From contig NC_057749.1 in the NCBI RefSeq assembly GCF_004010195.1, forward strand, positions 5,807,339 to 5,871,338: a stretch of DNA of 64,000 nucleotides, in the 5' to 3' direction. This document shows positions 1 to 61,223 of this stretch, in pieces. The notes under the pieces are model-generated. The model saw only the letters and a list, made by a program, of their open reading frames with translations. It did not search any database and was not told the DNA's origin. Positions within the stretch are counted from its first letter, which is position 1. Each line of letters begins with the position of its first letter. Made by a program: the position numbers and the translations under genes. The stretch is from Chiloscyllium plagiosum (taxonomy: Eukaryota).

Positions 1-1608
1 ACTATTCTTGGAGACACTGATGACATGAAGATCAAAGCCAAAGACTTGGCAATCTTTTCCCTGGCTTCCTAGAGAAACCGAGGATAAATCTCATCCAGCC
101 CAGGGGATTTATCTATTTTCACACTTCGCAGAGTTTTGAACACCTCCTGCTTGTGAACCTCAATCCCATTTCGTCTAGTAGTCTGTTTCTCAGTATTCTC
201 CTCAACAACATTGTCTTTTTCCAGTTTTTTTCATTGAGCACTTCCCGTTTCTCCTCTGATTCCACACACAACTTCCCACTGCTGTTTTTGATTGGCCCTG
301 ATATTAATCTAGTCATTTTATTATCCCTTATATACCTATAGAAAGCCTTCAGGTTTTCCCTGAACCTATCTATCAACAACCTCTCATGTCCCCTCCTCAC
401 TTGTCATAGCTCTCTCTTTAGGTCTTTCCTGGCTACCTTATAACTCACAATTGCCCTAACTGAGCCTTCACATCTTATCCTAATGTAAATCTTCTTCTTC
501 CTCTTGACAAGAGATTCAACTTCCTTCATAAACCAAGGCTCCTGTGCTCGACAACTTCCTCCCTGCCTGACAGTTACATACTTAGCAGGGACACGCAGTA
601 GCTGTTCCTTGAATAAACGCGGCACGGTGGCACAGTGGTTCTCACCGCGCCACAGACCTGGGTTCAATTCCTGCCTCAGGCAACTGTCTGCGTAGAGTTT
701 ACACATTCTCCTTGTGTCTGTGTGGGTGTGCTTTGGTTTCCTCCCAAAATCCAAAAATGTGCAGGCTAGGTGAATTGGCCATGTTAAATTGCCTGTAGTG
801 TTAGGTGTAGGGGAATGGGTCTGGGTGGGTTGCTCTTCAGATGGTCGGTGTGGACTTGTTGGGCCGAAGGGCCTGTTTCCACACTGTAAGTAATCTAATT
901 TCTATTGAGCCGTTTCCTTCCCCATCCTATGCATCCTAAATCTTGTCTAATCACATTGTAATTGTCTTTCCCCCAGCTGTAACTCTTGCCCTCAGGTGTA
1001 TACCTATCCCTTTCCATTGCTAAAGTAAACAAAGTGAATTATGGTCACTATCAGCAAAATGCTCACCTACCTCCATATCTAATACCTGGCCAGGTTCATT
1101 TCCTAGTACCAGATCCAATGTGGCCTTCCCCTTGGTTGGCCTATATACATACTGGACAAAAACTGACCCAACTAAAGTACTTGAACTATAGTATTCCCAG
1201 TCAATATTTGGGAAGTTGAAGGCCCCCATAACAACTACACTGTCATTCTTGCTCCTATCGAGAATCATCTTTGTTATCCTTTCCTCTAAATCTCTGGAAC
1301 TATTCAGACGCCTATAGAAAATTCCCAGCAGGGTGATCTCTCTTTTCCTGTTTCTAATCTCAGTCCATATTACCTCAGTTAATGAGTCCTCAAACATCCT
1401 TGTTGCAGCTATCATACTGTCCTTGACTAACAATGCCACACCCCCATCTCTTTTACCATCTTCTCTGTTCTTACTGCAGCATCTAAATCCTGGAACATGC
1501 AAGAACCATTCCTGTCCCTGCTCTACCCATGTCTCTGAAATGGCCACAACATTGAAATCCCAGGTACCGACCCATGCTGCAAGTTCAAAGACCTTATTCT
1601 GGATTGTT
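1..1608 (-). mobile_element. CR1/HER1-type LINE, degenerate ORF2 APE-endonuclease region, interrupted by a SINE at about 617-900
   Basis: ORF 1020-1547 reads AISETW...GGVALLVK...GIFYR...MGAFNFPNIDW...TLDLVLGN...SDHN. ORF 119-400 reads KAFYRYI..K...GPIK. Confidence 0.9.
617..900 (+). mobile_element. HE1-like tRNA-derived V-SINE
   Basis: GGCACGGTGGCACAGTGGTT head, GGTTCAATTCC B-box, V-domain and TAATCTAAT tail. Confidence 0.9.
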
Positions 1609-1965
1609 GAAGAAAACTCTCAGACTCAGACCTTGCGAACTGATTAGTTTATTACATGATATGTCATGGGGAATTCTCCGTCCTAACTGTGGCTCGGTGT
1701 TATTCCAAAGTACATCAGGATACTACAGGATTATATAGAGAAAACAGCTNNNNNNNNNNNNNNNNNNNNNNNNNNNNNNNNNNNNNNNNNNNNNNNAAAG
1801 GGAGGAGACACTATCTTGAGAAGGAAGATAAGGACAACCTTTCATATTACCTCATAGTAAGGAATGCATAGCCAGCAAAGTTCTGGCTGGGGACACAAAA
1901 TGAAACTCTCAGCCGAATCAGGAAAATGGCTTCCAGACAAATAATGTTAACTTTTCCCCAATATG

Positions 1966-2467
1966 AATGTTCCTGGCATTGAACTAGACACACTTCAAAC
2001 CAACATTTTGCTTGCCGATGCCCTCGTGCAACCCTGAAACCTTATTTCTGACATCCCTACTCTCAGCCTTCTCTATACTCAAACTACAATTTATATGCCA
2101 TCCCCCTGCTGAATTAGTTTAAACCCACCTGAAGAGCATCAGCAAATATCCCCCCCAGGATATTGGTACCCCTCTGGTTCAGGTGAAGACCATCCTATTT
2201 GTAGAGGTCCCACCTACCGCAAAAAAACCCCAATTATCCAGGAATCCAAAGCTTCCTCCCTGCACTGTCCCTGTAGCCTCTCTCTCCCTATTCCTCACCT
2301 CACTAGCACATGGCACGGGCAACAAACCAGAGATAACAACTCTGTTTTTTCTAGCTCCAAGCTTCCACTCTAGCTCCCTGAAATTCTGCACTAAATCCCC
2401 ATCTCTCTTCCTACCTATGTCATTACTGCCTATGTGGACCAAGACTTGGGACTGCTCCCCCTCCCTC
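1966..2467 (-). mobile_element. CR1 LINE ORF1 (SGNH esterase-like) fragment and inter-ORF region
   Basis: The peptide VHIGSNDIGRKRD...RVVISGLLPVP is typical of CR1 ORF1. Confidence 0.85.
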
Positions 2468-2903
2468 TTTGGTCCAACCAGTCCATGCCAAAATAATCTC
2501 TAACTAAACTAGTCACACCTGCCTGCTCCTGGCTCGTCTCCCTCCAAACCTTTCCAAATCATGTACTTATCAAAGTGTCATTTAAAGGTTATAGCTGTAT
2601 CCAGATCCATCATTTCCTCAAGAACTTCATTCCACAAGCAAACTACCCTCTGTGTAAACAATTTGCCCCTCATATCTTTTTATAAATCTCTCTCCTCTCA
2701 CCCTAAAAAAAACTCTTGAAATTCCCCATCCTAGAGGAAAAGCACCTACCATTAACTCTATCTATACACCTCATGATTTTATTAACATCAGTAAGGTCAC
2801 CTCTCAGCCTCCTATGCTCCAGTGAAAAAGTCCGAGCTTATCCAGCCTTCCTTTATGACTCAAACCTTCCCTACCCGGCAGAATCATGGTAAATCTTTTC
2901 TGA
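2468..2903 (-). mobile_element. CR1/HER1 LINE 3' end fragment
   Basis: Similar to the other CR1 3' ends in the window (e.g. 55718-56200). Confidence 0.8.
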
Positions 2904-3591
2904 GGCAGGTACCTCAGTCAGAATTGGAATGCTGTTGGTCTTTTTCTGAACCTTACACTAGTTGATTAGCTAAATGATTTAACCCATTCCCCCTTAGCAG
3001 GGTAATAAGCACAAAATATTGTGTAAGTTTAAGTGCAAACTATGGTGAGTGTGAATCACAAATCTTTTGGCTATTTTCTAAGTCTTAGTATTACAAGCCA
3101 GCCATACCCACAAATATGCACATATTTCCAGGATGAAATACTCAACATTTCAGCATTTCTGCTAATTATGCTCATTTGCAGACCATCATTGGAGTGTTAC
3201 AAGTTAAGCTTATTTTGAGTACAAGCATCTCGATAGGCTCCTTTCAAAAACATATTCAAATTTCTTTCTTAAATTAGGCAAGCTGCTGGACTTCAAAAGG
3301 TTCAGTATAGGTTTTCTAAAAAAAAGTTATTGCTAGTTATTTCAAATCAGCTTACTTTGATGGCATAGACTGACACTGTGATTAAAATTGCTTATTTTTT
3401 GTCATAAACTTGTGATAAATCTATTTGCAGATGTGTTAGTCAAACTGCATCACATTACTGCAACTAAATTTATAACAAGATATATTTTTAAAGCAATTAA
3501 AAAGATACACACAAGTGTGGTAAATGTTTGGTACTCTCTTCTATAATGGTAATGAACGCAGGATCTGTTGTTCATTTTAAATCTGAAATAA

Positions 3592-4451
3592 TGAAATAAA
3601 TGCACAGAGGCTTGCATCTCATCACTAAGTCACTCTTTATGTCAATGTACACAGTGCATGTACTCTGACCAGCCAGCTCAAATCCATCCTAGACTGAGAG
3701 GCTTTCTCAATCTCCTGTTTATTTTTTTTAATTCCTCCACACTACCGCCCAACTGCAGTAGTGCTTATATTTTCCCCAGCACCCATGTTGTATTTGTGCA
3801 GGTGTGTGACGCAGTGAAAGACACAAGGTGTACAAATCTTTATTCAATTTCCACCACCAAGAAGAAAGAAAACACCCAAGTGGCCAGTGACAAGCAGTGC
3901 CTTTCTCAGAGGGCAATGCTGTGTGATCAAACAGTGAAGGGGAGGGCAGGGATTAAATCAAAATAGAGTTGGAAGGGGAATCTTTTGTTTATTTATTTAT
4001 TTTTCTTATTATTTTAAGTGGCCAGTGACAAGCACTGTCCTTCGCATCAAAGGGCAATGCTGTGTGAATCTCCTGGTTATATTTTTTTTTCCCCACACTA
4101 CCGCCTAACTGCGGTAGTGCTTATTTTTTCCCCAGCACCCATGGTGTGTGTGTGCAGGTGTGAGACACAGTGAGAGACACAAAGTGCACAAATCTTTATT
4201 CAATTTCCACCACCAGGAAGATAGGAAAACACCCGAGTGGCCAGTGACAAGCACTGCCATTCACATCAAAGGGCAGTGCTGTGTGATCAAAACAGTGAAG
4301 GGGAGGGCAGGGATTAAATCAAAATAGAGTTGGAGGGGGAATCTTCTGTTTATATCTGTCAGCCAGGCACCCTGATTGGCCCAGGCTAACAACCCCAATC
4401 AAGGATCTCATAGTCAATGAGATCCACCTGAACCTGAATTCAATCACTATA
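3592..4451 (-). mobile_element. Solo LTR interrupted at its TATA box by stacked retroposon insertions
   Basis: The minus strand shows a CCAAT box (GGCCAATC), GATATAAACAG and a terminal ...TTATTTCA. The right part is homologous to 50985-51086, 59624-59708 and 60268-60420. Confidence 0.65.
3723..4339 (-). mobile_element. Three tandem insertions (3723-3978, 3993-4066, 4081-4339) of a short poly(A)-tailed retroposon, possibly the 3' end of a Tx1-like non-LTR element
   Basis: Each copy is bounded by a roughly 14-bp repeat AATCTCCTGTTTAT (3709, 3979, 4067, 4340). The two long copies have a minus-strand AATAAA, a terminal hairpin CACTACCGC-ctaact-GCGGTAGTG and an A-rich tail. Confidence 0.7.
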
Positions 4452-5149
4452 GATAGATTATTTTGTTAAGCAAAGGAATTGATCAATGGCAGGTATATAG
4501 AGTTAGGCCACAGGTCAGCCATAATCTCATTGAATGACAGAACAGGCCCAAGGGGCTGAATGGCCTATTCTGCTCCTATGACTTGATTGCGCTTGTTCAG
4601 GGACAGATTTTGTTTTGCAGTTTAGTAATAAGCAAAGAAATTCAAAACCTCGCAAACCAAGAGTGTATTTTGGCCCGATCTTAGCAAGATAGCTGATTGG
4701 AGCCAAAGCTGAAATTCTACATCCAAGTGTTAAGAGTGCCTCTTATTAATGACGTAAACCTCTTTTTAAGCGGTGAGATTCAGCCGATAGTCCATCCTTG
4801 ATGAAGCTGTGAGATCTTTTCTTGACTCGTCTTTCTTCTTCCATTGTCTTATATCATCCTGCTTTCATGAGGTCGACACATTTTACAACTTGCTTTGTTG
4901 ACATATGCTGAAGCATTTATTTTGTTAATATTTTGCATTCTGAAAACCTCTCTCAGTATTTGAAGAATTTGGGGAAAGTGTTGGTGTAGTGTTAATGATC
5001 CAGAGGCTCTGGTAATGCTCCAGGGACATGGTTTTGAAACTCACTTGCAATCTATTGGAACTTGAAATGAAACTCACAATCCATGATTGCTATAAAAACC
5101 ACATCTGGTTCATGAACGTTTTGACAATCATACATGAGATCTTTTCAGA

Positions 5150-19797: not shown

Positions 19798-20846
19798 GAA
19801 AAGAAAGTGAGGACTGCAGATGCTGGAGATCAGAGCTAAAAATGTGTTGCTGGAAAAGCGCAGCAGGTCAGGCAGCATCCAAGGAACAGGAGAATCGACG
19901 TTTTGGGCATAAGCCCTTCTTCAGGAATGAGGAAAGTTTGTCCAGCAGGCTAAGATAAAAGTTAGGGAGGAGGGACTTGGTGGAGGGGCGTTGGAAATGC
20001 GATAGGTGGAAGGAGGTCAAGGTGAGGGCGATAGGCCGGAGTGGGGGTGGGGGCGGAGAGGTCAGGAAGAAGATTGCAGGTTAGGAAGGCGGTGCTGAGT
20101 TCGAGGGATTTGACNNNNNNNNNNNNNNNNNNNNNNNNNNNNNNNNNNNNNNNNNNNNNNNNNNNNNNNNNNNNNNNNNNNNNNNNNNNNNNNNNNNNNN
20201 NNNNNNNNNNNNNNNNNNNNNNNNNNNNNNNNNNNNNNNNNNNNNNNNNNNNNNNNNNNNNNNNNNNNNNNNNNNNNNNNNNNNNNNNNNNNNNNNNNNN
20301 NNNNNNNNNNNNNNNNNNNNNNNNNNNNNNNNNNNNNNNNNNNNNNNNNNNNNNNNNNNNNNNNNNNNNNNNNNNNNNNNNNNNNNNNNNNNNNNNNNNN
20401 NNNNNNNNNNNNNNNNNNNNNNNNNNNNNNNNNNNNNNNNNNNNNNNNNNNNNNNNNNNNNNNNNNNNNNNNNNNNNNNNNNNNNNNNNNNNNNNNNNNN
20501 NNNNNNNNNNNNNNNNNNNNNNNNNNNNNNNNNNNNNNNNNNNNNNNNNNNNNNNNNNNNNNNNNNNNNNNNNNNNNNNNNNNNNNNNNNNNNNNNNNNN
20601 NNNNNNNNNNNNNNNNNNNNNNNNNNNNNNNNNNNNNNNNNNNNNNNNNNNNNNNNNNNNNNNNNNNNNNNNNNNNNNNNTGGGTTGTTCGGTTTTGGAA
20701 CTGGTCCTCCTGGGAGCAGATGCGGCGGAGACAAAGGAATTGGGAATATGGGATGGCATTTTTACAGGGGGTAGGGTGGGAGGAGGTGTAGTCTAGGTAG
20801 CTGTGGGAGTCGGTCGGTTTATAGTAAATGTCTGTGTTAACTGTCT
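19798..20846 (-). mobile_element. 5'-truncated Penelope-like element (RT C-terminal region plus 3' terminal repeat) spanning an assembly gap
   Basis: The peptide TDIYYKPTDSHSYLDYTSSHPTPCKNAIPYSQFLCLRRICS is characteristic of Penelope/Poseidon-type RTs. 15-bp TSD GTTTAATTTTGAGTC (19783-19797 / 20847-20861). Confidence 0.85.
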
Positions 20847-21799: not shown

Positions 21800-22571
21800 G
21801 CCATCGATTTGAGATGCTCTCTTGTAGCCCCCTCCCAGGGACTCCCCCAAAACCTTGCCCCCTTCCCAGTTTGGGGGCCGAGGGTGAACTGTGCAGCCTG
21901 CAGGCTTCAGTCCTGGGCCAATCCCCGTTTAAAAGACAGGGGGAGGGGACACATAGAACACAGACAAAGGTGAGGGGCAGCTTCTATGGCAACCCAATAG
22001 ATCACATTCCCCTATTCAGTAAGCGTATGGGAAACGCAGAGCGCTCTCACGGCAGTTAGCAGCTTTTCTTCGCTGTTACAATGGGGTCTCTGCCGAGGGA
22101 AGGGTTCGAATCCCGCAAAGGATGAAGCCTTCTTGATTGTTATTTTTTTTTTAATTGTTGTTAAATTTCTGCTGGCTTGCCTTTTATTCTCTGCTTTCCA
22201 GTCCAAGGATTCTCCCTGGTTTATTTTTGTTTTGGAGAAGTGGGAGGACTCGCACGCCTTTCTGGGGTTTGCAGACTGCGAAGTCCTGGTGCCTTTTTGA
22301 ACCTCATGGCCGTGGTGGGCGGGTGGGCGAGGGCTCTGAAGAGGAGGGGGGGGGGTAAGCGTCCGGATTTCCAGCGCCCGTCCATACAGGGAAGGGGAGG
22401 GGGGAGGAGAGGGGGAGGTGGGTGGGGAGGGAGAAATCCTCTCTCCGCTCAGTGCATCAGGAGCTAGAGATGTGGCAGGGATCTGAGAGCCCGTGGTCGC
22501 TGTGTCTGTCTGACGGCTGAGCCATATCCACATAGCAAAGGGGGTACCGGGAGGCTCCTAGCCGAGGGGAC
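21800..22571 (+). promoter_or_regulatory. GC-rich HCN4 promoter/5'UTR region
   Basis: Repeat-free, GC- and CpG-enriched, with G-tracts at 22344-22431 directly upstream of the ATG. The TSS cannot be determined from sequence. Confidence 0.6.
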
Positions 22572-23236
22572 ATGGACAAACTGGCTCCTTCTATGCGCAA
22601 GAGACTCTACAGCCTTCCGTCGCCGACCCGGGCCAAAGCTGGGGCAGAGGACGAGGAGAAGGAGGGAGACCCAGAGGCGGCCAGGAGGGGTTTCAAAATG
22701 AGACCCCTGCCTTCTCCCTCCGGAGGGCTGACCAGGGAACCACTGGCCGGAGGGCAGGACAGCAACCTCTTGGAAACCGAGCTCGGGAGGACGGTCAAAG
22801 GCAGCAGCATCAGCAGCAGCACGAACGGGGACTGCCGCCGGTTCCGGGGCAGTCTCGCCTCGGTGACCGGCCGCACGCTCCAGGGAGCCGGGCTGGCCGA
22901 TGACAAGCGCCTGATCGTCGAGGGGGACTCCAGCCCCAGCGAGGACACCAACCCCGGCAGCGAGGGCTCCGAGGCGAGTCCCCAAGCCGAGCCGAGCTCC
23001 GAACCCGAGCCCGGGCTGGCTTTCCTGAAAGTGGACACCGCCGACCAGATCCTGCTGGAGGATGAGCTCCGGGCGAGCCAAGCCGGCTTCATGCAGAGAC
23101 AATTCGGGGCCATGCTCCAGCCGGGAGTCAACAAATTCTCGCTCCGGATGTTTGGGAGCCAGAAAGCAGTAGAGAGGGAGCAGGAGCGAGTCAAATCCGC
23201 CGGCTTCTGGATTATCCACCCTTACAGCGACTTCAG
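22572..23236 (+). CDS. HCN4: Coding exon 1 of potassium/sodium hyperpolarization-activated cyclic nucleotide-gated channel 4 (cytoplasmic N-terminus up to just before S1)
   Basis: The ORF starts [16 protein letters not shown] and contains [36 protein letters not shown] and [53 protein letters not shown], all recognisable from vertebrate HCN4. It ends at TTCAG|GTAA, a phase-2 donor at 23237, which is the conserved HCN exon-1 boundary. Codon usage is GC/CpG-rich. Confidence 0.95.
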
Positions 23237-24210
23237 GTAACCCGCTGTCTCAATGCCCTGAAATCACTTGAAAACAGAAACAAAGTTCATTGCCTTGCCT
23301 TTCAGTCAAGATAAGGCATGTCCCAATTAGATCCCACAAACAGGAGGGAGGTAAAGTTCCAAAGAATGGAGTTGGCACAAGGAGCAGATTTAAAATAGTC
23401 CTTTCTCAGTAGTGTTGAGAGTTTTATTGTATGAAAGCTGCCTTGATAAATAAAGCCAGGTATGAGGATTTGTCCAGCGGCCTGGCAAGATTGGGGATGT
23501 TTGTTTCAATATTATTTATGCAAGTTTTATTTTATGAAATGTGCAGCTTGTGAAAGTTCCTAACTCGGGAGGTACAACTCCACCCTGTTCTTTGCGGGTA
23601 AACACTTTGTTAAACTATTGGCGAACACTCAGAATTCTAACCTTTGCCAATTCGTTCTAGTCATTTTGAAAGTTTGCCTAGAATTTGGTAATGATCGCAA
23701 AATTGCATGTGTCCTTGGTTGTTTGTGTTAACGCACTTCCAACGGGGACTGTAGTTCCCATCCACGTATGCTTATATTTACGTACATTTAATGGTAATGA
23801 CCTGGTTCGTCGGTTTCATCCATCTCCCACACCAGAGATCTCCAGAGATCACCACATCTCCTCTGTGCACCAGAGTTCCCTCCTATACCCATGCAGGGGC
23901 AAAGCGACAAGCAAGGTAGCCCTGTGTAGCTGACAGAGGAGAGGTAGCTGAGAGGCTATGGTGCTCTGTAGTTAGGCAAAATCTGACACATTCCAAACTC
24001 GCCTCTGGGCATGAGAGTTTGGACAAGATCATCCAACAGCTAGTGCTGATAACGCTTCAGGCTCATATGTGTTGGAAACTGCAATGGGGTGTGGGAGGGG
24101 AAGGGGAGGCGGATGGACAAGAGGACTTTTTTAAAAAAAAAACAGTGCGTTCAGGCCAAGAGGATAGGCAGGGCGCGCTCGCCACGAGGAAAAGCGGAAT
24201 TGGTGTGGTG

Positions 24211-26999: not shown

Positions 27000-27354
27000 T
27001 GACAATAGACAATAGGTGCAGGAGTAGGCCATTCTGCCCTTCGAGCCTGCACCACCATTCATTATGATCATGGCTGATCATCCTCAATCAGTATCCTGTT
27101 CCTACCTTATCTCCATAACCCTTGATTCTACAATCCTGAGAGCTCTATCCAACTCTTTCTTAAATGAATCCAGAGACTGGGCCTCCACTGCCCTCTGGGG
27201 CAGAGCATTCCACACAGCCACCACTCTCTGGGTGAAGAAGTTTCTCCTCATCTCTGTCCTAAATGGTCGACCCCGTATTTTTAAGCTGTGTCCTCTGGTT
27301 CGGCACTCACCCATCAGTGGAAACATGTTTCCTGCCTCCAGAGTGTCCAATCCT
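27000..27354 (-). mobile_element. Young CR1 LINE 3' end
   Basis: Intact peptide TRGHSLKIRGRPFRTEMRRNFFTQRVVAVWNALP and a (GACAATA)n tail. Confidence 0.9.
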
Positions 27355-43329: not shown

Positions 43330-44150
43330 GCTTTGTTTTAGAATTGGTAGATGAGTGGTATGATTACAGCTCTTGTTGAAGAGTTTGGTGGAATAGACAG
43401 AAAGAAACAGTTTCCTTGTGTGGAGGAGTTGAGAAGAAGGGGACATAAACAAAAAAAAAAGATTAAGCCAGATGAAAAGAAATCCTTCTTCAAACAGTGT
43501 ATTGTGAAAATTTGGAACTTTCTACTCCTAAAAGCTGTTAAGGTTGAAGGATAATTGAAAATGTTAAAATTGAGATTGGCAGATTTTTGTTGGGTGAGGG
43601 TACTAAGGACTACAGAACACAAGAAGCTGAAGTCAGAGTAGACTGTTCAGTCCCTCAAGCCTGCCCCACCATTTGATAAGTTTATGGCTGTAATCTCAAC
43701 TCTACTTTCCCGCCTGCCTCCTGTATCTCCTGAATCCCTTGTTGATCTGAAATCCATCTTGCTAAACCTTGAATATATTCAATGACCTGCTACTCTCTGG
43801 GAAAGAAAATTCCTCAGGCTAACAACTCCATGAGAGAAGAAGAAAGCAGGAATTATCAGCAGTGCTTTGCCCGGAGGCCTACTGAAAACATTACCGGGTA
43901 AGGTGATGAAACGTCTGGAAGTGAACCTTCCAGCTCAGCTAGCAAACCTATATCCAGAAGAAATTTCCTCCTCATCTCCCTTTAACATTTAAACTGTTCT
44001 AGATATCCCTGGAAGGGAAAACTTCCTTCCAGCGTCCACCCTGTCTCGCCCTCAACTGCAGTTAGTCATTGAGTTCAGAAACAGATCAGCTATGGTCTAA
44101 TTGAATGCCAGAACAGGTTTGAGGGGCTGAATGGTATTCTCCTGTTCCTA
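43330..44150. mobile_element. Nested CR1 3' ends (+ and -) with an inserted Penelope-like fragment (about 43840-43960)
   Basis: CR1 tails in both orientations. The insert contains ...GGTGATGAAACGTCTG and is flanked by AGAAGAA repeats. Confidence 0.6.
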
Positions 44151-48717: not shown

Positions 48718-50613
48718 CGGCTACCTTCAACTTCAAGTTGAAGTTGCTCCATACTTCATGTTGTATCATACTTCAAGTTGCTCCATTTAAGATGGAGTCA
48801 GAGACCTTTGTACCTTCAGGTCACATGACATGATACAATGATTATATCATGTTCTTAAAGGTATACTGCATGCTAACTGTGAAACATACATAGTATATGG
48901 CACTGACAGTGTAACAAAATGTCCCAAGGATATTATCAGTTATTTTATAAAATGACACATAGCCTCATAAGGAAGGATGGGTGGCAAAATGCATAAGTAT
49001 AAAGCTGGGTTTAACTGAGCACCTTAAAGGAGGAGAGAGAGGCGGAGATGCAATGGATTTTTGTAGCTTATTGTCCAAGGCTTTTTTTTTTAGCTTTTTT
49101 GACATTGATTAAAGTGCAGGAACAAAGACAATTTGTGGGAGAATTGTACATGATTTTACTGGAAACATTGCAGTTGTTGGTGTTCATATTAAGAACCGTG
49201 CTTGAAGTGATCTGGTGAAGTTTCACTAAATTAGTCCCTGGGAGGATGGTTGGCCATTGTGATGACAGTTTGAATAATTGGCCTTATATTCGATGGAGTT
49301 CAGAAGAACAAGAGGTGATTTAATTGAAACACAATTGTTTCTGAAGGGGCTTGGTCAGCACTGATGCTCTTTCTGCTGGCTGGGGATTCTGAAACAGGGG
49401 CACAAGATCAATTTAAGGGGCCAATCAATTAGGACGAAGATGAGAAGAAATTTGCTCACTCAAGGGGTTGTGAATCTATGGAATTCTCTGCCCCAGAAGG
49501 TTCTGGGATGCCATTATTGAATACGTCATTATCATAGTCCACTCAGCCCATAGTGCTGCATGGATTCCATTATCTATTGCAAATCTCCTATCTTTACCTA
49601 ATATTGCTGCACACCATTTCTATCCAAATAGTCACAAATAGTCATCTGATATCCTCTTGAATCCCTCAATTGAATGCCACCTCCACCACATTTCCAAGCA
49701 GTGCATTCCAAAAATTTAAGATTATGATAGGCAGATGTTTGGTCTCTTAGAGAAACAAGGGAGTTGGGAAGTTGAGTTGAAGTCCTTGATCAGCTTTTGA
49801 ATATAGAAGCAATATAAAGGGGCTGAATGGTTTACTCCAGCTCCTATTGTGTTGAGGTCTTGCCTTCAAGCTGCTGAAGAGACAGTTACCAATGGTGAGG
49901 CGAAGAAAATGGCAGGGTGTGGTGGTGGGTATATGCCAAAGGGGATGAAACTGAGCGATTAGAGAGATCTCAGGGTGAGGTTCTTGGTGCACAGTGGTCG
50001 TGTGAGCCAAGAGGCCCTGATTCAAGCCCCACCTGTTCTAGAAGTGTGTAATAACATCTCTGAATGGGTTATGTAGAAAATATCCTGAACTAGAGTGAGG
50101 GCTCTGTTGGAAGACGAGAGGAACGTTATTGGTAACAGATCAGGACACGCTAAGTTGTCACCAAAATAGCATCAAAATGATGATAGCTTGTGAGCTGAAC
50201 TTGGCACCGCTTAATAGGAGATGGAATTTAGAATCTGTCGGTAGCTCTACAATAATTGTTTGGACAGTTTCAAAAGCATAATCTCGGAGTAAAGGCATTT
50301 AGGTGAAGCATTATTTTAAATGTTATGGTGGACTGCCATTTCCCATAATCTAGGTTGGTTGTAGCCTTGGCAGAGTAATGCCAAGATAGCAGCTGCTTCA
50401 AAACCAGTGTCAATTGAATCACCTGAGTCATAATTAACATGCCACATCATCCAAATTCATCATCTGCAAATGTGAAAATTCTTGTAAACAATCCAAGTTG
50501 CTTGGACACCCCACAGATGCTGATAGTTGACAAGGTTTTACACAACTTTACATAATTCACAACTATTGGCAGTAAGTAGCAAAATCACCAACCCTAGGTG
50601 GACCAGCATCAGG

Positions 50614-51086
50614 TGTAAAGAGTGCAGTGGCGTCTATTGTTCCTGGCACTAGATTAGTCCCCTCACTAACACAAAATGGAGAGTCCTTCACTGATCCAGC
50701 TCCCTCACGGCCGGTTCGCAGGGTGGGTACAACCTCTGACACTCCTGTTTATGTTTTTGTTTTCTTTCTACTTTTTTACCCTGCACTACCGCCTAACTGC
50801 GGTAGTGCTTATATTGTCCCCAGCACCCATGATGTGTGTGTGCAGGCGTGAGATACAGTGAAAGACAACAGGCGTACAAATCTTTAATCATTTTCCACCA
50901 CCAGGAAGAAAGGAAACACCCGAGTGGCCAGTGACAAGCAGTGCCCTTCTCAAAAGGTAATGCTACTGTGTCTCTGCTGTTTATATCTGTCAGCCAGGGA
51001 TCCCTGATAGGACTGGATTAACAGCCCCAATCAGAGAACTTATATTCAATGAGGTCCACCTGACTGAGCCCGTTACCATCGCTACA
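50614..51086 (-). mobile_element. Solo LTR (related to 3592-4451) interrupted at its TATA box
   Basis: Ends ...ATCGCTACA, with a CCAAT/TATA region homologous to 4350-4451. The left end is approximate. Confidence 0.6.
50753..50971 (-). mobile_element. Fourth copy of the short poly(A)-tailed retroposon
   Basis: Same body as 4081-4285, flanked by CTCCTGTTTAT and CTGCTGTTTAT. Confidence 0.75.
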
Positions 51087-51759
51087 ATGATGATTGTGGT
51101 ATTGTAGTGGGCTAACAAAGAATTGCAGTCTATTTGTGGAAAGGAGTGAGGTGACACAGGAAGAGCAGATACTCAGTGTTATGCATAATTTTGCAAAGAC
51201 AGGATGTGCTATGATTTAGCAGAACAATGAAAACAGTTTGTTTCCAAACTGACAAAAGCCAGAATCCCTGTCAGGATAAAAGAAAAACATTATTTGTGTA
51301 TGAGGGCGTGACCTTTGTTGTCTTCACAACGTTTAGCATTCTGCAGCTAATTTTATCATGAATTACCACAGAATGTCAAATAAAAATGCATACGGAAGTA
51401 AAGGTCATCGCCACTTCTTCCAAGTAATGGAATCTCGCTGGCCCATTAGCTCATTAAATGTTACCTTACAGAAGAAACCTATGGAACATTGGCTTCTTGA
51501 ATACTCATTGAAAGGAACGTGGTCTCGCAGTCAGAGAGATGTTTGGAAGGGCGGAAAAGAAACCTTGACAATTCTTGAAAGGGGAAGCTGAATTGTCTTC
51601 TTGCACAGGATTCATTACCTGCCCTGTTTATAAGTAGTCTGGACTTAGCTATTTAGGAGAACCATATTCAAATTTGCTGCTGGCACCATGTTGGGAGAAG
51701 GACTGAAATTTGTTAAATAGTTTGACTATAATCTAGCACTCACCTCAACGCATACTGAT

Positions 51760-51938
51760 CTTTGGCCATGCTAAATTGCCCGTAGTGTTCAGAGATGTAT
51801 AGTTTAGGTGCATTAGTCATAGAAATGTAGAGTAATAGGGTAGGGGTGTATGTCTGGGTAGGATACTCTTCGGAGAATCAGTGTGGACTTGTTGGGTCAA
51901 ATAGCCTGTTTCCACACTGTAGAGATTCTATGATTCTA
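51760..51938 (+). mobile_element. HE1-like SINE 3' half
   Basis: TTGGCCATGCTAAATTGCC...GTTTCCACACTGTAG and an ATTCTATG tail. Confidence 0.8.
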
Positions 51939-52316
51939 TGAAGATGGCTGGGTTGATGGTTGAAATGATTTAAAGTAGAAAAAGACACTTTGGAACAAGA
52001 ATGGGCAAAGGGGCAGCCCCCCGCGCCCCCACCCCGTGACTGCAAAGAGTAGAGAATCAAACAGAATTTAGTGTGGACACGCTCAGGTCATTGAAGGCAG
52101 CAGCACAAGTAAGTAAGACATTAAAATGCAAAACGAGTTCCAGAGACAGAGAAGGCATGGTGGCTCACTGGTTAGTGCTGCTGCCTCACAGTTTGGCTCT
52201 ACCCTTCGGCGACTATCTGTGTGGAGTTTGCACATTCATCTCCGTGTCTGTGTGGGTTTCCTACCACAGTCCAAAGATGTGAAGGTTAGGTGGATTGGCC
52301 ATGGGGAATTGCCCAT

Positions 52317-53106
52317 TGTTACGACATGGGTAAACCCTCCTGCTTAATTTAATCCAGCAACACAGAAAAGATTTATTCTGTGCAGTAATCTGTGAAAATT
52401 CGAAAGGCCAACAACTATTTAAAGTAAAAATAAACAACTTTATTTCTTAAAGTATAACAGAGAATAATTAACTAGCAACTATTTAAAATTCCTTCCTCTG
52501 ACCTATCTTTTGCTTCCCCTTCTATATTTCTAGTCTGATAAAACCCCCGATTAAGATTTACTGAAAAATTCAAATTTCAAAACCAACCAGCTGTTGAATC
52601 TCCTTTTTTTATATCTTCCTCTGTAGAGTTGCTCTCCAGGTCAGTGTCAATGTTTTCCTCTGTCCAAACTCCTTCTCTAGCCAGGTACCTCTCAGAGGGT
52701 TCTGACTAGCAGTCGACATCTGTTGGTCGATTGCAGTTCTCCCTTAACTGATCAATTTTTTCCCAGTCTTACCCTCCCTTAACTGTTCAATTTTTTCCCA
52801 GTCTTACCCTCCCTTAACTGTTCAATTTTTTCCCAGTCTTATACCTCCAAAGCATTGGATTATGTCATTGGCTTTTAATATTGTCAATATACTAAATTCA
52901 AACTTGGTATATTTTGGTATATTTTGGGATATAATTTAAACTGATTGGCCTAATTCAAGTTTACTTTTTGTCTCCAGGCAACCAGCTACACTAGCTGCTG
53001 GACCAAAAGGGTGCATTATATCTTGTTCAGAACACTTGTTGCTGTCAGGTAGTTCTGCTAGCTTTTAACTCTCTTAAAGGTACAGTACACCCACATCATC
53101 ATAACA
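52317..53106 (-). mobile_element. Solo LTR (790 bp)
   Basis: Inverted termini TGTTACGA...TCATAACA, 4-bp TSD CCAT/TCAT and a minus-strand AATAAA. Confidence 0.78.
52741..52841. repeat. 35-bp tandem repeat, about 3 copies, inside the LTR
   Basis: Unit CCCTTAACTG(A/T)TCAATTTTTTCCCAGTCTTACCCT. Confidence 0.95.
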
Positions 53107-53431
53107 TCATATCGCCCAAGGATGCGCAGGCTAGGTGGATTGTGGCAGGCGTTGTGAAATGCAGGGTTATAGGGATAGGGCAGGTGGTGTGGGTCTGAAT
53201 GGACTAGTATGGGCCAAATGGCTTGCTTCCACACTATGGTAAGCATGAAAATAATGTGGAACAGGTTTATGACTCCAGAGCATTGTCTACTGTTTTGGAT
53301 TGCTGTTACAAGAAGAATATAATGAAAATAGAAAAGATGGAATGTGGATTTGCTGGAATACTATCACAGTCAAACAGTTAAAGTTGTGAAGAGAAATTGG
53401 AGATATTATAGATTTCCTCATTGAAGTGGTG

Positions 53432-54398
53432 AACATAGAACATTACAGCGCAGTACAGGCCCTTTGGACCTCGATGTTGCGCTAACTTGTGAAACCAATC
53501 TGAAGCCAATCTAACCTACACAATTCATTTTTGTTCATATGTCTATCCAATGACGATTTAAATGCCCTTAAAGTTGACGAGTCTACAACTGTTGCAGGCA
53601 GTGCGGTCCATGCCCCTACTACTCTCTAAGTAAAGAAACTACCTGTGACATCTGTCTTATATCTATCACCCTTCAAATTAAAGCCATGCCCCCTTGTGCT
53701 AGCCATTAGGCGGCACGGTGGCACAGTGGTTAGCACTGCTGCCTCACAGCGCCAGAGACCCGGGTTCAATTCCCGACTCAGGCGACTGACTGTGTGGAGT
53801 TTGCACGTTCTCCCCGTGTCTGCGTGGGTTTCCTCCGGGTGCTCCGGTTTCCTCCCACAATCCAAAAATGTGCGGGTCAGGTGAATTGGCCATGCTAAAT
53901 TGCCCGTAGTGTTAGGTTAAAGGGGTAAATGTAGGGGTATGGGTGGGTTGCGCTTCGGCGGGTCGGTGTGGACTTGTTGGGCCGAAGGGCCTGTTTCCAC
54001 ACTGTAAGTAATCTAATCTAATCTAATTACCAACCGAGGAAAAAGGCTCTCACTGTCCACCCAATGTAACCCTCTTATATGTCTCAATTAAGTCACCTCT
54101 CAATCTTCTTCTCTCTAGTGAAAACAGCCTGAATTCCCTCTGTCTTTTCTTGTAAGATCTTCCCTCCATACCAGGGAACATCCCAGTAAATCTCCTCTGA
54201 ACCCTTTCTAAAGCTTCCACATCCTTCCTATAACGTGGTGACCAGGACTATATGCAGTACTCCAAGTACGGCCAGACCAGAGTTTTGTATAACTGCAGTG
54301 TGACCTCATGCCTCCAAAACTCAATCCCTCTACTAAAGTCATAAGAAGTATGCATTCTTAACAACCCTATCAACCTGGGTGGCAACTTTCAGGGATCT
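53432..54398 (-). mobile_element. CR1 LINE 3' fragment interrupted by a young HE1-like SINE (+, 53709-54026)
   Basis: The SINE retains its CpGs and a (TAATC)3 tail. The LINE resumes on both sides. Confidence 0.88.
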
Positions 54399-55717
54399 AA
54401 GCCTTAAGTTTATGGAAAAATAATGACTGACAGATTATTTCTCCTTGTTGGAAATCTAATTAAAAAGGAGGCATATATTTTTGATAACAACATTCTCTAA
54501 GAAATAGAAACATTAAATTTACAGTAAAACAGAAATTTCTGGTGAAACTCAGCAGATTGGGCAGCATTTGTGGAGAGAAAGCAGAGTTAACATTTTGGAT
54601 CCAGTGACCCTTCTTCAGACTACTTTGATTAACATAGTTACACAACTTTGGATAGAATGTTGAATTCTTTCACACAAACTGTTTGAAAGATAAAGGCCTG
54701 TCTGTTGATTTTTATTTGTAAAAGGGAGTTGTGGATAGTAAATTGAGAAAAAGGAAATTGTTCATGGGGTATGAAGACCAGTTAGAGTCTGGGTGGGGTT
54801 CTCAGGAATGCGGGTGTGGATTTGATGGGGTATAATTCCACACGATAGGGATTCTAAGTAGCAATTTCAAAGAAATGAACATGTCACCTAAAGATAATCA
54901 AGAATATCAACATCATATTATTATGCTGTATTCCACAAGTAGCACTCTAAGATGAACTAGGGAACATGTCTAAGTCAGTTACCAGAAACTAACATTGAAA
55001 CTCAAAAGCTTTCACACCCAAATATTGTTTTTGATTAAAATTGCATTAACTATTTCTAATGGGAATCCACAATATCTGGAGCTCTTTGGAGGGAAAGCAC
55101 TTGTCTTTCAAGCGCTTGTCTTAAGCCTTGGCAATTCGTGATTCATTGTTGCATTTCAATAACTTTAATACTTAAGTGACAAACATACAGGATATTGGAT
55201 ACTTATCGGGGATTAAAAAGCAATATCTTTGGCCTGTGTAAGGTACTATAGACAATGACAGCAACAGAATGTTTGTAACCATCAGCTAAGCTTACTGGCA
55301 GGCTGCCCAAGCACTTCTAGAATTTCCTGGTGTGTACCTAGCAACCTTTTTTTATTAGCCTGACGTTAACATCCCAGTCCTCTACAACAGAGCGAGTATC
55401 TGATCTTGCCATCTGGGCACGTTTTATCCCCTGTGCTCTCACTGCTGCATTCTGTGGTCAATGATTCACTATGTGAAGACTCCCTTCCTCTCGCCAACCT
55501 CTGAAGTAGGTACAGTGCCAACCTGTTACTTGTGAGGGTCAGCTTAAGGGATGCTACATCTTCAGAAGATCAGGCATCCTCTAGTGACAGAATGCTCTCA
55601 ACATGCCTGAATTGTGAGGGAGGGACAAAACTTAGCGCTTAGCCTGAAAAAGAAATGTGTGCTTGCTGAAAGTAGCTGCAGTTTGTCATGTTGTGGGTCT
55701 AAGGTGAGATCAAATCA

Positions 55718-56706
55718 TCGAGTCATAGAGCTGTACAACACAGAAGTAGACCCTTTGGTCCAAATCCTAAATATCCCAAATTAATCTAGCCCATTTGGCC
55801 CATATACCTCTGAGCCCTTCCTTTTCAAATACCCATCCAGATGTCTTTTAAATGTTGTAATTGTACCAGTCTCCAACACTTCCTCTGGCAACTCATTCCA
55901 TTCATGCACTATCCTCTGTATGGCGAGGTTTCCCCTTTGGTCTCTTTTAAATCTTTCCCTTCTCACCTTAAACCCATGCCCACTAATGTTGGACTCCCCC
56001 ACCCTGGGGAAAAAAACCTTGTCTATTTACCCTATCCATGCCCCTCATGATTTTATAAACTTCTATCAGTTCGCCCCTCAGCTTCTGACCCCCCAGGGAA
56101 AACAGCCCCAGTCTATTCAGCCTCTCCCTAGAGATCAAACCCTCCAACCCTGGCAACATCCTTGTAAATCTTTTCTGAATCCTTTCAAGTATCACAACAT
56201 CCCTCCTATAGCAGAAAGACCAGAACTGAAAGCAGTATTCCAAAAGTGGCCTAACCAATGTCTTGTATAGCCGCAACATGACATCCCAACTCCTACATTC
56301 AATGCACTGACCAATAAAGACCAGCAGACTGAACACCTTCTTCGCTATCCTGTCTATCTTGAACTCCACTTTCAAGGAACTTTGAACCTGCATTCCAGGG
56401 TCACTTTGTTCAGCAACACTCACCAGGACCTTACAATGAAGTGTATAAGTCCCGCCCTGATTTGCCATTCCAAAATGCAGCACCTAACATTTTTCTAAAT
56501 TAAACTCCATCTGCCACTCCGCAGCCCATTGGCTCATCTGATCAAGTTCCCGTTGTATTCTGAGGTAGCCTTCTTTGCTGTCCATTACAGTTCTAATTTT
56601 GGTGTCATTCGCAAACTTACCAACTGTTCCTCCTATGTTCACATCTAAATCATTTATATAAATGACAAAAAGCAGTGGACCCGGCACTGATCCTTGTAGC
56701 ACATTG
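55718..56706 (-). mobile_element. CR1/HER1 LINE RT C-terminus and 3' end
   Basis: QGSVPGPLLFVIYINDL...KFANDTKI...WQMEFNLEKC and LYKTLVRPLLEYCFQFWS. Confidence 0.92.
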
Positions 56707-57889
56707 CTAAGAAGCTAAAGGGGGTAAGAGATGGGACATGAAATGCCTTCTTGTCAGGTTGTTGAGTCTATTCAAGGCAGGGATTGATAGACTTTTGGGT
56801 ACAAAGGAAATTGTGTTGGTGTCATGTTGTGAATATCCAGTTCATTATTTACATATTTGAGAATATAACTTCTAGTTTTCATAATTAACATTTTAACTAT
56901 AGGAAAATGTTGGGAAATGAAATATAAACAATTCTGATGTAAATGCAACTGAAACAAGCTGATAATGAAGAAAACCCAAACAATGATTTCATGATCTCTA
57001 TTCATTGTAATGGAGCTGGAGTGGTCTTGAGAGGGAGAGAGGGAAATCACATCTGTGAGCAATAAAAACACTGATATGCGTTGCAAGATCAAAGAGTTGT
57101 GTTGAAGATAAAATCATTAATTTGCATTTCTGAATCATCCTGAAGAATGCCACATTATCACAGAAATAGTAATTCAGGGTGGAGCCTTGGTGAGAGGGTC
57201 TTTTGCTCAATTTACCTTTGTGAGTTTTTCGACAATAGCAATCAGAAGGAAGCAGCTGGAGGATTTTTTCTAGCTTGCATCTGGTCGAAGAAATCCGCAG
57301 TGGTGTTCAGAGCCCAGGGCAGAAAGCAGTCAGCTTGAATAACCAGATGGAAAGAGCTGCACGAGCAGACTGGGAGATGGTTAAAACAACAGTCTATGTA
57401 TATTCAAAGCCAGAATAAGGAGCTGAAGAGTTCACTGTCTGGAGCCTTTAAAGAGATCTAAAAACTAATGGAAAATCCCCATATAATTTATAACTTTAAG
57501 GACTAGCTTGTGTACTGAGTAGAATTAAAAACTCTGGAGAGCAATGTTTCCTTCCAGGAAAAGTGAATGAACCTTAAAAAATTCATAAAACGGGATCCTT
57601 GGGGATGATGTGTGAGACGAGGGTAATAGTGTAACTGAGTACTTCACAATAAATACTCACTATTAATAATATAGGGTTATCATTAATAGCTCTTACTTTG
57701 ATTGATTTTGTTTTAATGGTCCAATAAAGTTTGTGTTTGTCAAAATAGCATTAGCCCCTGTTGTATTGTTCTGCCAGTTAACTGCTGGGTATTGGGATTT
57801 CCTCTTTAAACAGGAATAGTTTTAAATATTCAGGACATAATAACAGAACAATGAAGTTGGTGTAAAAGGTTAGTTGCGACCTTAATTTT

Positions 57890-59545
57890 TTAAATTCATT
57901 CATGGGATGTGAGAGCCCCACATGCTGGGCCAACATTTATTGCCCATCCCTAGCTGCTCCTGAGGAGGTGGTGGTGAGCTGCCTTCTTGAACCGCTGCAG
58001 GCAATTTGGTGTAGATAGATCATTGGAGAAGGAGGACCAAGATTTTGACAGCATGGAAATGAAGGTACAATGATATATTTCCAAGTCAGGATGGTGAGTG
58101 GCTTGGATGGGAACTTACAAGTGGTGGTGTTTATATGTATCTGCCACCCTTGTCCTTCTAGATGATTGTGGTTGTGGATTAGGAAGATCCTGTCTAACAA
58201 AACATGGTGAATTCCTGCAGTGCATCTTGTAGATGGTACCCATTGCTGCTAGTGAGCAATGGTGGTGGTGGCAGGAGTGAATATTTATGGTTGCTGTGCC
58301 AATGAAGCAGGCTGATTTCTCCTGGATGGTATCAAGCTTCTTCCATGTTGTTGGATCTGTGCTCAGAAGGTGCTAAGGAGTATTCCATCACACTCGTGTG
58401 TTGTGTTTTGTAGATACTGGAGAGGTTTTGGGAGTCAGGTGATAAGCTATTTGGTGCAAGAATCCTAGTCTTCAATCTGCTCTTGTAGTCACTGTACTTA
58501 CTTAGCTAGTCCAGTTCAGTTTTTGGTCAACTGTAACTCCTAGATTTTTAATAGTGGGGAATTCAGTGAAGATGGTGTCATTGAATCTTAAGGGGTGATG
58601 ATTAAATTCTCTCTTTTTGGAGATTATCATTGCCAGCACTTGTGTGGTCTGAATGGTACTTACCACTTGTCAGCCCAAACCTGGTATTGTCCAGGTTTTG
58701 CTGCATTGAACATGGACTTCTTCAATATCCGAGGAGTCATAAATAGTGTTGGACATTTTGTAGTCGTCAGTGAACATCCCTAATTCTGGTGTTCCGATGG
58801 AGGGAAGGCCATTGATGAAGCAGCTGAAGCTTGTTGGGTTTAAGACACCAACCTGAGGAACTCCTGGGACAGGGATGACTGATGTCCACCACTACCTTCC
58901 TTTGTGCTATCTTGGAGTCTAACCAGCAAAGAGTTTTCTCCGAAAACCCATTGACTCTAGATTTTCCAGGACTCCTTGATGTCACACTCAGTCAAATGGG
59001 CAGCAGTGGTTAGCACTGCTGCCTCACACACCAGGGTCCAAGGTTCGATTCCAGCCTCAGGCGGCCGTCTGTGTGGTGTTTACACATTCTCCCTGTGTCT
59101 GCGTGGGTTTCCTCCGGGTGCTCCAGGGTTTCCGCCCACAGTCCAAAGATGTGCAGGTGAATTGGCCATGCTAAATTGCCCATAGTGTTAGGTGTATTAG
59201 TCAGAGGGAAATGGGTCTGGGTGGGTTACTCTTTGGAGGGTTGGTGTGGACTTGTTGGGCCAAAGGGACAGCTTGGACAGCAAGTTTCATTGTTAGTGTT
59301 GTTGTCTTTTAGATGAAAAGTTAGAGGCCGAGGCCTTGAATGCTCTGTAGGGGATCTAAAAACTTAATGTCAAAGGCCGTCATTCTCACTTCACCTCTGG
59401 AGCTCAGCTCTTTTGTCCATGTTTCACCTAAGACTGTAATGAGGTCAGGAGCTCAGTGGCCATGGTTGAACTCAAACTGAGTGTCAGTGAGCAGGTTACG
59501 GTTTGTAAGTGATAGCACTGTTGATGATTCCTTCCATCCCTTTAC
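57890..59545 (-). mobile_element. Old CR1/L2-group LINE interrupted by an HE1-like SINE (+, 58997-59268)
   Basis: The minus strand at about 58796-58867 reads PGVPQVGVLNPTSFSCFINGLPSI, a degenerate RT GVPQGSVLGP..F..FINDL motif. Confidence 0.75.
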
Positions 59546-60543
59546 TGAATGGTGGAATGGGATCAAAAGGCTGAATACCCTACAACAAATTATGTTTTCA
59601 GATTGCTATACTTATACAAATATGTCAGCCAGGGCTCCCTGATTGGCTCAGGTTAACAATCAAGGATCTTTTGTCAATAAGATCCACCTGGCCCTGGCTC
59701 CAATCACAGAATTGCATTTCAAACAAGATGATTAAGTGGCTGCAAAGTATCATTTAGACATTCTAAGGATGTGAATGTTGCTATACAAATGCCAGGCCAA
59801 GTCCAAAAGGAAGCTAGATTGTGCTATGGTCTGGAAAGCCAGGGTGAAGGATGGAACTGCTTTAGCATAGTCGTTTTGTCACCTTGGATCGATGGCTCAG
59901 AGATAGTTGGGAATATTATAAGTTTAATATCATTTTTATAAGCAAACATACAGTATCACTGATGCACATTTGAAGACACCTCAGTTGTCTTCAATTATAT
60001 GCAGATGGAAGGTAGTTTTGAGCTTTTACTTGAGCAAAAATGAAATTACAGTGGGGTTGAGCTCTGAGATGTAAGCATGTACAAATAAATACATATACAA
60101 TAGGTTTAATGTTGGATCCAGTTCTATCCTTCACCTTGGCTTTCCAGACCAGCACTGTCTAGCTTCCTTTATGACTTTGCCTTGCATTTGTATAGCAACT
60201 TTCACATCCTTAGAATGTCTAAATAACACTTTACAGCCACTTAATCATTTTGTTTAAAATGCAATGCTGTGATTGGAGCTAGGGCCAGGTGGACCTTATT
60301 GACTATGAGATCCTTGATTGTGGTTGTTAACTTGGGCCAATCAGGGAGCCTGGCTGACTGGTATAAACAGGAGTCTCAGAAGGTCTCCTTAGTTTAGGAA
60401 CTGGCTCTGAGCTGGTTGGTCTGATTAGTTATCTTGGATAACTAATGGTAAGGTCAGCAGAAGAGAGAGTATTCAAGGCCTCGTCCTCTAACTTTTCATC
60501 TAAAAGACAACAACACTAACAATGAGACTTGCCATCCAAGCTG
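59269..60543. repeat. Nested inverted duplication
   Basis: Outer arms 59269-59346 / 60466-60543 and inner arms 59624-59859 / 60119-60358. Confidence 0.88.
60268..60421 (+). mobile_element. LTR fragment of the 3592/50614 family with an uninterrupted TATA site
   Basis: GGCCAATCAGGGAGCCTGGCTGACTGGTATAAACAGGAG is continuous here. Confidence 0.7.
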
Positions 60544-61223
60544 CACAGAAGTATCACCCTGGGTTATGTGCTGACATCTCTGGAGTGGGATTTGAAACCA
60601 CACATTAGACTCAAAGGTGTGAATGCCAGCAGCTGAACCACAGATGCCTCTGTAGGTGGTTGTACAAGGCACACTGGTGTATCAAACTGTCTCGGGGCAA
60701 CTGGGAATTAATGTCAACCTTGTCAGCCAGTCCATAAAGAAATTTTTAAAAATGTGTTAACACCTTTACTAATGTGGTGATGAGAAGGAGAAGAACTGCA
60801 TGAAGCATCCCTCTATTAATACCTTTAACCATCACTTCTGGGCTACAATATGGAATTAACCTGAAAACTTAAGATGATGAGACACGTTTCTTTATTTTTC
60901 TTCTTGAGGCTATTAAGTTGAACTTCCTGAGTCATTTTAATGTGAGTATTGAATTTTGTTCTAGTTCATGGTTAAAGATTTGAGGACGTCAATTACTAGT
61001 GTGATGAATACTCTCTTACCAGTAAATAAACTGGCTTCCACTGGGATTCTACAGGATACTTTGTCGCCTTTATTGAATTATGAGTTAAAAATTTGGACCT
61101 ACCATTTAATGTATATCTTTTAGTTTTGTGCATGACAAACAGATTTCTCTTTCCAGAAAATGGCAATACTATTCAGAGGGTACAAAATATAACTTGTGGA
61201 TTGTTGAGGGACCTTTGACTTTC

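Follow-up and report, generated by a model that had tools for sequence, protein, structure and literature searches.

In crocodilians, a single site of Mariner-N4_AMi carries insertions of SINEU-3 and Tx1-Mar, which are accompanied by a 16-bp duplication; their tandem copies sandwich a duplication and are interpreted as sequential insertions, and two Tx1 families, Tx1-8_Crp and Tx1-4_AMi, prefer particular long terminal repeat (LTR) retrotransposons, as stated in the excerpted text of PMC4494074. Here we describe a comparable arrangement in a stretch of 64,000 nucleotides (64 kb, hereafter the window) from contig NC_057749.1 of Chiloscyllium plagiosum. At 3547-4451 of the window, a minus-strand repeat with CCAAT and TATA motifs (the host) is broken one base into its own TATAAA box by an array of three A-tailed copies of an element (A, B and C), which are separated by four copies of a 14-bp target (T1 to T4). 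All positions are window coordinates, and sequences of the array are read on the minus (sense) strand. We consider it likely, from the sequence comparisons below, that the element is a strongly site-preferring, poly(A)-tailed non-LTR retroposon, which would insert at the 14-bp target by target-primed reverse transcription (TPRT) and duplicate the target at each insertion.

The 14-mer AATCTCCTGTTTAT has eight matches with at most two mismatches in the window, compared with 1.02 expected, and none of 100 shuffles reached eight. Four of these matches are T1 to T4; beyond the array, the 14-mer matches at 50739, which belongs to a second occupied site, at 60363 on the minus strand, which is an empty site, and at 31796 and 52597, both unoccupied and with one or two mismatches each. 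Across the 64 kb, BLAST and a profile search added a single element copy, D, and the profile search revealed none outside the host family. All four element copies, at both of the two sites, therefore occupy one position of a host family that covers about 1 kb of the window. They end in an A or A-rich tail (A9 in A, A8 in C, a degenerate 24 nt in B and a degenerate tail in D), and the target duplication flanks every one of them, with 0-2 mismatches for T1 to T4 and 11 of 14 matching positions for the flanks of D. An earlier note on this DNA had reported three minus-strand, A-tailed copies between four targets at 3709, 3979, 4067 and 4340 and had proposed that each insertion regenerates the target; the layout is present as described, and the duplications bordering all window copies fit the proposed regeneration. 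Copy B is indeed a minus-strand, A-tailed copy, but to regard it as merely a short copy is not adequate, since both of its ends are cut back compared with those of A and C.

The four host copies in the window comprise two that are occupied, one that is empty and one that is rearranged from the TATA region onward. In every case (4/4), the element lies in sense, downstream of the host CCAAT and TATA motifs, so the sense orientation behind a host promoter claimed previously holds for all window copies. A and C are 89.7% identical over 261 columns (BLAST), and the 50-nt core of B matches A at 46 of 50 positions (92%). Between the two sites, A and D are identical at 164 of 190 positions (86.3%) and C and D at 161 of 190 (84.7%), whereas the host copies that carry them, 1 and 2, share only 64 of 87 positions (73.6%) in their upstream parts and 29 of 68 in their downstream parts. 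The inserts are thus more alike than their hosts, indicating that D and the array entered already diverged host copies in independent events. B differs from A and C at both ends and is therefore taken as an event of its own; its 5' end and that of D lie within 2 nt of each other. By these comparisons, the array would record at least two independent events (B, and A/C), with the A/C pair going back either to two insertions or to a single one followed by unequal exchange or gene conversion, and the window as a whole would record at least three (D, B and A/C), possibly four.

Contigs of public runs were aligned to positions 3350-4550 at 80% likeness; X1 and X12 are DNA contig sets with two different species labels, and X16 is a set guessed to be RNA. 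In X1, the summed word depth, which is not a copy number and is to be read in orders of magnitude only, is 6-13 in the unique left flank, 570-2,430 in the host downstream part, 49,000-62,000 in the host upstream part and 0.73-1.5 million in copy A; the element is among the commonest repeats and is, by orders of magnitude, far commoner than the host copies alignable at 80% likeness. At least 27 T precede position 4091 in 221 contigs of X1 and 219 of X12, indicating that typical element tails are long, and one shared continuation past 4341 (149 contigs in X1 and 127 in X12, agreement 0.68) indicates that A and C are truncated copies of a longer form. In 10 of the 12 listed junction rows, an element 5' end leads through target or target-like letters into the T run of the next copy, and the 5' ends at the listed joints fall at 4235, 4275, 4281, 4288 (twice), 4304, 4307, 4338 and 4341 (twice). 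Stacked arrays thus exist elsewhere, with at least eight other truncation points and under both species labels. Contigs break in long tails, and a joint is visible only when both of its sides match the stretch, which favours stacked arrays; flanks of unrelated DNA would scatter among 2,146 loose ends outside the joints listed.

Among the joints listed, those from 3640, 3680 or 3686 to 4339-4370 fit empty host copies (19 X1 contigs), and those from 3729 or 3732 to 4082-4092 fit occupied ones (16 X1 contigs), which makes the two classes about equal among the joints listed, with 587 more outside them. A 958-base contig of X12 reaches from the unique flank through the host and T4 into the beginning of C and differs at 10 of 437 bases, so that at least C is older than the split of the two species labels. 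The depth ratio of element to host is about 30:1 in X16, the set guessed to be RNA, similar to about 27:1 in the DNA runs. Two degenerate motifs of the element gave no match in metagenome, viral and genome contig collections.

These results suggest the following mechanism. The inserts would be 5'-truncated copies of a very abundant retroposon, either the 3' end of a long interspersed nuclear element (LINE) or a non-autonomous element mobilised by one, and the preferred target would be the sense sequence ATAAACAGGAGATT, starting at the second base of the TATAAA box in a promoter-bearing repeat of about 270 nt. An endonuclease would nick the bottom strand at 5'-...CCTGTTTAT/ATCTG-3', at the T/ATAAA boundary within the TATA box; the freed T-rich end, ...TTTAT-3', would prime on the poly(A) tail; the top strand would be cut 14 bp downstream, after GATT; and fill-in repair would duplicate the 14 bp. 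An intact target would then stand on both sides after each event and new copies could enter beside old ones, and it is the two usable targets left per event that would explain the head-to-tail sense stacks behind the promoter motifs. The upstream target copy would retain a complete TATAAA, whereas the downstream copies, preceded by a tail, would lose the box, and the downstream host part would consequently be cut off from its own promoter motifs; the host repeat may thereby be disabled, as the earlier note supposed. The joins between tail and target (3723-3731/3709-3722 and 4081-4090/4067-4080) show poly(A) meeting the duplicated target (ATAAAC...); an AATAAA-like word is made in this way at the 3' end of copy C, as a by-product of inserting at the TATA box.

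The mobilising enzyme most likely belongs to the L1/Tx1 group, because its presumed nick lies at a T-rich/A site and the copies combine a poly(A) tail and duplications of 13-14 bp with a truncated 5' end, all of which would agree with this group; membership of the Tx1 clade, proposed in the earlier note, is putative. No reverse transcriptase (RT) or endonuclease belonging to the element was seen in the window, where the longest copy is 259 nt, and the only hits to an apurinic/apyrimidinic endonuclease (APE) domain (1020-1619) and to RT (56487-56714) have no element 3' end beside them. Chondrichthyans carry Tx1-type but no full L1 repeats according to the excerpted text of PMC8455134, which provides a lead only.

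Several observations weigh against an explanation by site-preferring insertion. The nick site TTTAT/A resembles a loose form of the L1 consensus, and part of the preference could be generic. Over the element, read depth exceeds that over the upstream and downstream parts of the host about 20-fold and about 500-fold, respectively; either most element copies lie outside the host family or most host copies are too diverged for 80% likeness, and copies at the 14-bp target may be a minority. Furthermore, A and C have identical 5' ends, and their first 52 nt agree at 51 of 52 positions, compared with 173 of 192 elsewhere, while T1 and T3 share a derived base (position 4345) that has no counterpart in the intervening T2 and differs from T4 and from the family majority in the read contigs. 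By a hand estimate, the chance of so few A/C changes over 52 nt plus the target copy is about 0.04. Taken together, the shared 5' end, the near-identical 52 nt and the T1/T3 base indicate that recombination as well as insertion shaped the array, likely through unequal exchange or a gene-conversion tract within it. Accordingly, the proposal of three stacked insertions stands for B as an independent event and is uncertain for A and C as separate events. The recurrence of 5' ends is also left unexplained by the overlap of target and element at the 5' junction, which is 1-2 nt; microhomology was considered as its cause and rejected, given overlaps as small as 2 nt (A, C) and 1 nt (B, D).

Tentatively, the element could instead be specific for the 14-bp word anywhere, with the promoter repeat as its commonest carrier; neither the TATA box nor transcription from the host promoter would then be functionally linked to it. 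The excess of element over host depth would fit such a preference, as would several joints that show just 21 letters, target plus T run, on their short side; in addition, transcripts directed by the TATA box would begin about 10-16 nt within the insert, and a captured promoter would then not reproduce the 5' end of the element. It is the absence of window copies outside the host family, together with the two unoccupied 14-mer matches at 31796 and 52597 (imperfect as they are), that counts against it. A further reading, namely a promoter-trapping, target-regenerating lineage without a promoter of its own that enters an abundant LTR-like repeat one base into its TATA box, always in sense, is transcribed from this captured promoter and has been amplified in stacked arrays to the order of 10^5 copies in two related species, appears unlikely.

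It is unlikely that a non-specific L1-type retroposon hit an A/T-rich TATA site by chance or through a TTTT/A preference, and that the array then grew by unequal crossing-over or slippage. Such an origin would account for the likeness of TTTAT/A to the L1 nick consensus TTTT/AA (given in the excerpted text of PMC1950540), for the common 5' end, near-identical first 52 nt and T1/T3 base of the A and C units, and for an element depth far above that of the host. However, D lies independently at the same base of a host copy that is 73.6% identical, B is unlike A and C at both ends, the reads show at least eight further truncation points beside target-like letters, and both sites in 64 kb fall at one position of a family covering about 1 kb. 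Finally, it is highly improbable that one host (LTR) subfamily contains the insert as a constitutive or captured segment, which spread with the repeat and gave the local array by tandem duplication: although the insert is always in the same place and orientation and minority variants at 4103 and 4109 are common to A, C and D, an empty host copy exists in the window and contigs also fit empty copies, A tails and target duplications accompany all copies, the truncation points differ, occupied host copy 1 is nearer to empty copy 3 (80/94) than to occupied copy 2 (64/87), and the element is much more abundant than the host and runs 5' into a longer form. The duplications, A tails, 5' truncation, empty site and diverged second host copy hence uphold the earlier view of site-specific insertion rather than a constitutive LTR segment. 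The R-U5 part of a host LTR was likewise considered as the source of the insert and ruled out by the long poly(A) tails in the reads and by the empty site.

The positions of the array, of the second site and of the remaining host copies are collected in Table 1.

Table 1. Positions of the retroposon copies, their target copies and the host repeat in the window
Feature	Position	Strand	Remarks
Host copy 1, upstream promoter-like part	4354..4451	-	kept in 4/4 window host copies; mean column identity 77%
CCAAT motifs of host copy 1	within 4354..4451		ATTGG 4375-4379 (CCAAT in sense); CCAAT 4395-4399
Palindrome and TATAAA box of host copy 1			9-bp palindrome 4404-4412/4417-4425; box spanning 4354/4353-4349
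Target copy T1	4340..4353	-	sense ATAAACAGAAGATT; 1 mismatch to the 3709 copy
Retroposon copy A	4081..4339	-	259 nt; 5' truncated relative to longer genomic copies; A9 tail 4082-4090
AATAAA of copy A	4195..4200	-	about 100 nt before the tail; TTTATT on the + strand
3'-terminal hairpin of copy A	4096..4119	-	stem of 9-10 bp (4096-4104/4111-4119), 6-nt loop
Target copy T2	4067..4080	-	sense ATAACCAGGAGATT; 1 mismatch to the 3709 copy
Retroposon copy B	3993..4066	-	50-nt internal core 4017-4066, then own degenerate A-rich tail 3993-4016
Target copy T3	3979..3992	-	sense ATAAACAAAAGATT; 2 mismatches to the 3709 copy; derived base common to T1
Retroposon copy C	3723..3978	-	256 nt; 5' end same as A; A8 tail 3723-3730
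AATAAA of copy C	3839-3844	-	about 100 nt before the tail; TTTATT on the + strand
3'-terminal hairpin of copy C	3740..3763	-	3740-3748/3755-3763; one pair G.U in sense RNA only
Target copy T4	3709..3722	-	sense ATAAACAGGAGATT; family form; 0 mismatches to the 14-mer
Host copy 1, downstream part	3547..3708	-	from alignment; end near 3547 approximate
Host copy 2, upstream part and 5' target copy	50971..51072	-	5' target copy at 50971-50984
Retroposon copy D	50753..50970	-	5' truncated; complete 3' end with hairpin; long, degenerate A-rich tail 50753-50778
3' target copy of D	50739..50752	-	11/14 positions match the 5' copy
Host copy 3, empty site	60269..60450	+	TATAAACAGGAGTCT at 60362-60376 continues uninterrupted with the downstream host sequence
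Host copy 4, upstream part only	59620..59707	-	family likeness breaks off at the TATA region (59620) and is back about 274 nt away, from 59345 downwards

Within the element, the AATAAA and the 9-bp terminal hairpin attributed to both long copies are seen in A and C. The hairpin appears in both the minimum free energy and the centroid folds with 9-10 pairs, and it is retained in all three window copies that have a 3' end, with changes confined to one side. Two changes, namely one variant of C and the genome-majority letter found at 4103, each leave G.U in place of a G-C pair in the sense RNA, where the antisense strand would have an A-C mismatch; these G.U-compatible variants give a small hint that the hairpin may matter in the sense RNA. 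An internal hairpin (4250-4261/4269-4280) was rejected as a conserved feature, being broken in C and D when the alignment was read by eye. The frame ending SPSNSILI-stop noted previously is present in the element; it amounts to eight residues, one base of which is taken from T1, and is too short as evidence of family. In the 30-letter 5' continuation obtained from the reads, two of three frames, read by hand, stay open. Rfam at its gathering scores gave no match in the whole window, indicating that neither a head nor a target derived from transfer RNA, 7SL, 5S or small nuclear RNA is involved.

The likeness among host copies starts near TG(T/C)(A/T)GTGATTGG and extends over about 95 nt on the upstream side of the target and some 60-170 nt on the other side. 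Read depth climbs from 80 in bin 3514-3554 to 568 in bin 3555-3595, near the end of host copy 1. The regions beyond the four host copies are not collinear, which marks the host as a short, roughly 270-nt unit rather than the 5' part of a longer element; for the same reason, as seen downstream of the host copies, we rejected the host as the 5' end of the neighbouring CR1/L2-like LINE (1-2500, minus strand). A solo LTR, as the earlier note had it, remains a fair guess: the CCAAT and TATA promoter motifs are conserved in all four host copies and speak for it, whereas paired copies, gag or pol and a clear flanking duplication were not found in the window. In host copy 1, one choice of boundary gives CTATAG/TTATAG, the first of which is possibly part of the repeat itself, and host copies 2 and 3 revealed no clear flanking duplication pair. 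No paired host copies around gag-pol occur in the window, a result that a solo LTR would equally give, and Pfam detected no gag, protease or integrase in 145 of the 156 open reading frames (ORFs) of at least 72 aa, the 11 omitted including ORFs that overlap the inserts. Host copies 4 and 3, with their flanks, are carried by a local inverted duplication (59300-59850/60130-60545), in which their upstream parts are 89.7% alike; in its left arm, about 274 nt of unrelated DNA replaces the target and about 90 nt of host, from the TATA region onward.

Another dispersed repeat adjoins a host copy at 4497-4580 and is also found at 44068-44143 and 27012-27077; relative to the element, the depth of the 4497-4580 repeat in X16, guessed to be RNA, exceeds that in the DNA run X1 about 15-fold. 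A LINE fragment at 1-2500 on the minus strand runs off the window start and has no copy of the studied element beside it; it contains an APE endonuclease domain (1619-1020, Pfam PF03372, E 1.7e-12) and an upstream ORF (2499-2182) with an esterase-like HIGSNDIGRK motif and no Pfam match, and from this motif we presume it to be of CR1/L2 type. A reverse-transcriptase fragment of another retroelement lies at 56487-56714 on the minus strand (RVT_1, E 6.4e-07, just at the Pfam cut-off). An open frame at 22536-23237 on the plus strand, in a GC-rich stretch at 22-24 kb, matches Ion_trans_N (PF08412, E 2.1e-22) and is probably the first coding exon of an HCN-type channel gene, which would place the repeat array about 18 kb upstream of a vertebrate gene. 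Runs of N, which are assembly gaps, occupy 1750-1796 and 20115-20680. Motifs of the neighbouring repeats had no match in literature full text, and motifs of the element and host had no relevant match in the same search, outside which the repeat databases Dfam and Repbase lay.

Site-specific retroposons are usually low-copy, since their targets are few. The present element, which appears to favour a site within an abundant repeat and to rebuild it at each insertion, illustrates how a target-specific element could rise to be among the most common repeats in a genome, and target regeneration, if true, would offer an escape from the copy-number ceiling of site-specific elements. The 14-bp sequence would be a natural recognition sequence for a putative APE-type endonuclease and is testable in vitro. 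For annotation, such stacks are to be treated as nested insertions and not as a composite LTR subfamily or a satellite.

The targeting of LTR-type elements, for which the earlier note knew of no description, is not new as a class: Tx1 families that prefer LTR retrotransposons and target-sandwiching tandem copies of a short interspersed nuclear element have already been published, as the excerpted text of PMC4494074 shows. The present case probably adds a new target position, the TATA box of a promoter-bearing repeat, and its host lineage is probably new as well; the mechanism is already known. Among described systems, R2 in 28S ribosomal DNA is target-specific and depends on transcription of its target, as far as the excerpted text of PMC4494074 states, and thereby provides a model for promoter capture; it uses a restriction-like endonuclease and an rRNA gene target, and co-transcription with the host would here be an inference. 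TPRT by L1 and Alu likewise leaves a poly(A) tail and duplications of about 14 bp, produces 5'-truncated copies and uses a nick at a T-rich/A junction. However, L1 occupies hundreds of thousands of unrelated sites, whereas both window sites and the read arrays of the present element share one 14-bp word. Closer in target choice is Tx1L, which in Xenopus laevis is a LINE directed to one site of another mobile element, Tx1D; in the excerpted texts of PMC4494074 and PMC1950540, it has a sequence-specific APE-type endonuclease, the specificity of which was shown in vitro, and its target is a non-autonomous piggyBac DNA transposon. The LTR targets of Tx1-8_Crp and Tx1-4_AMi are of the class proposed by the earlier note, whereas the LTR status of the present host is putative.

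The closest parallel is provided by SINEU-3/Tx1-Mar. As far as the excerpted description goes, the crocodilian elements and the present one are alike in being poly(A)-tailed and inserted at one position of another transposon family, in a long fixed target duplication (16 bp there and 14 bp here), in tandem copies that sandwich a duplication, in 5'-truncated copies at the same target and in the similar age of target and insert. They differ in the target, which is a Mariner DNA transposon in crocodilians and the TATA box of a promoter-bearing short repeat in C. plagiosum, and in the partner LINE, which is identified for Tx1-Mar and belongs to the Tx1 clade, whereas the present element is known here from RT-less copies only. 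Finally, 90% of the SINEU-3/Tx1-Mar copies flank their target, whereas the present element does so at both of its two window sites, and at a copy number that is apparently far higher.

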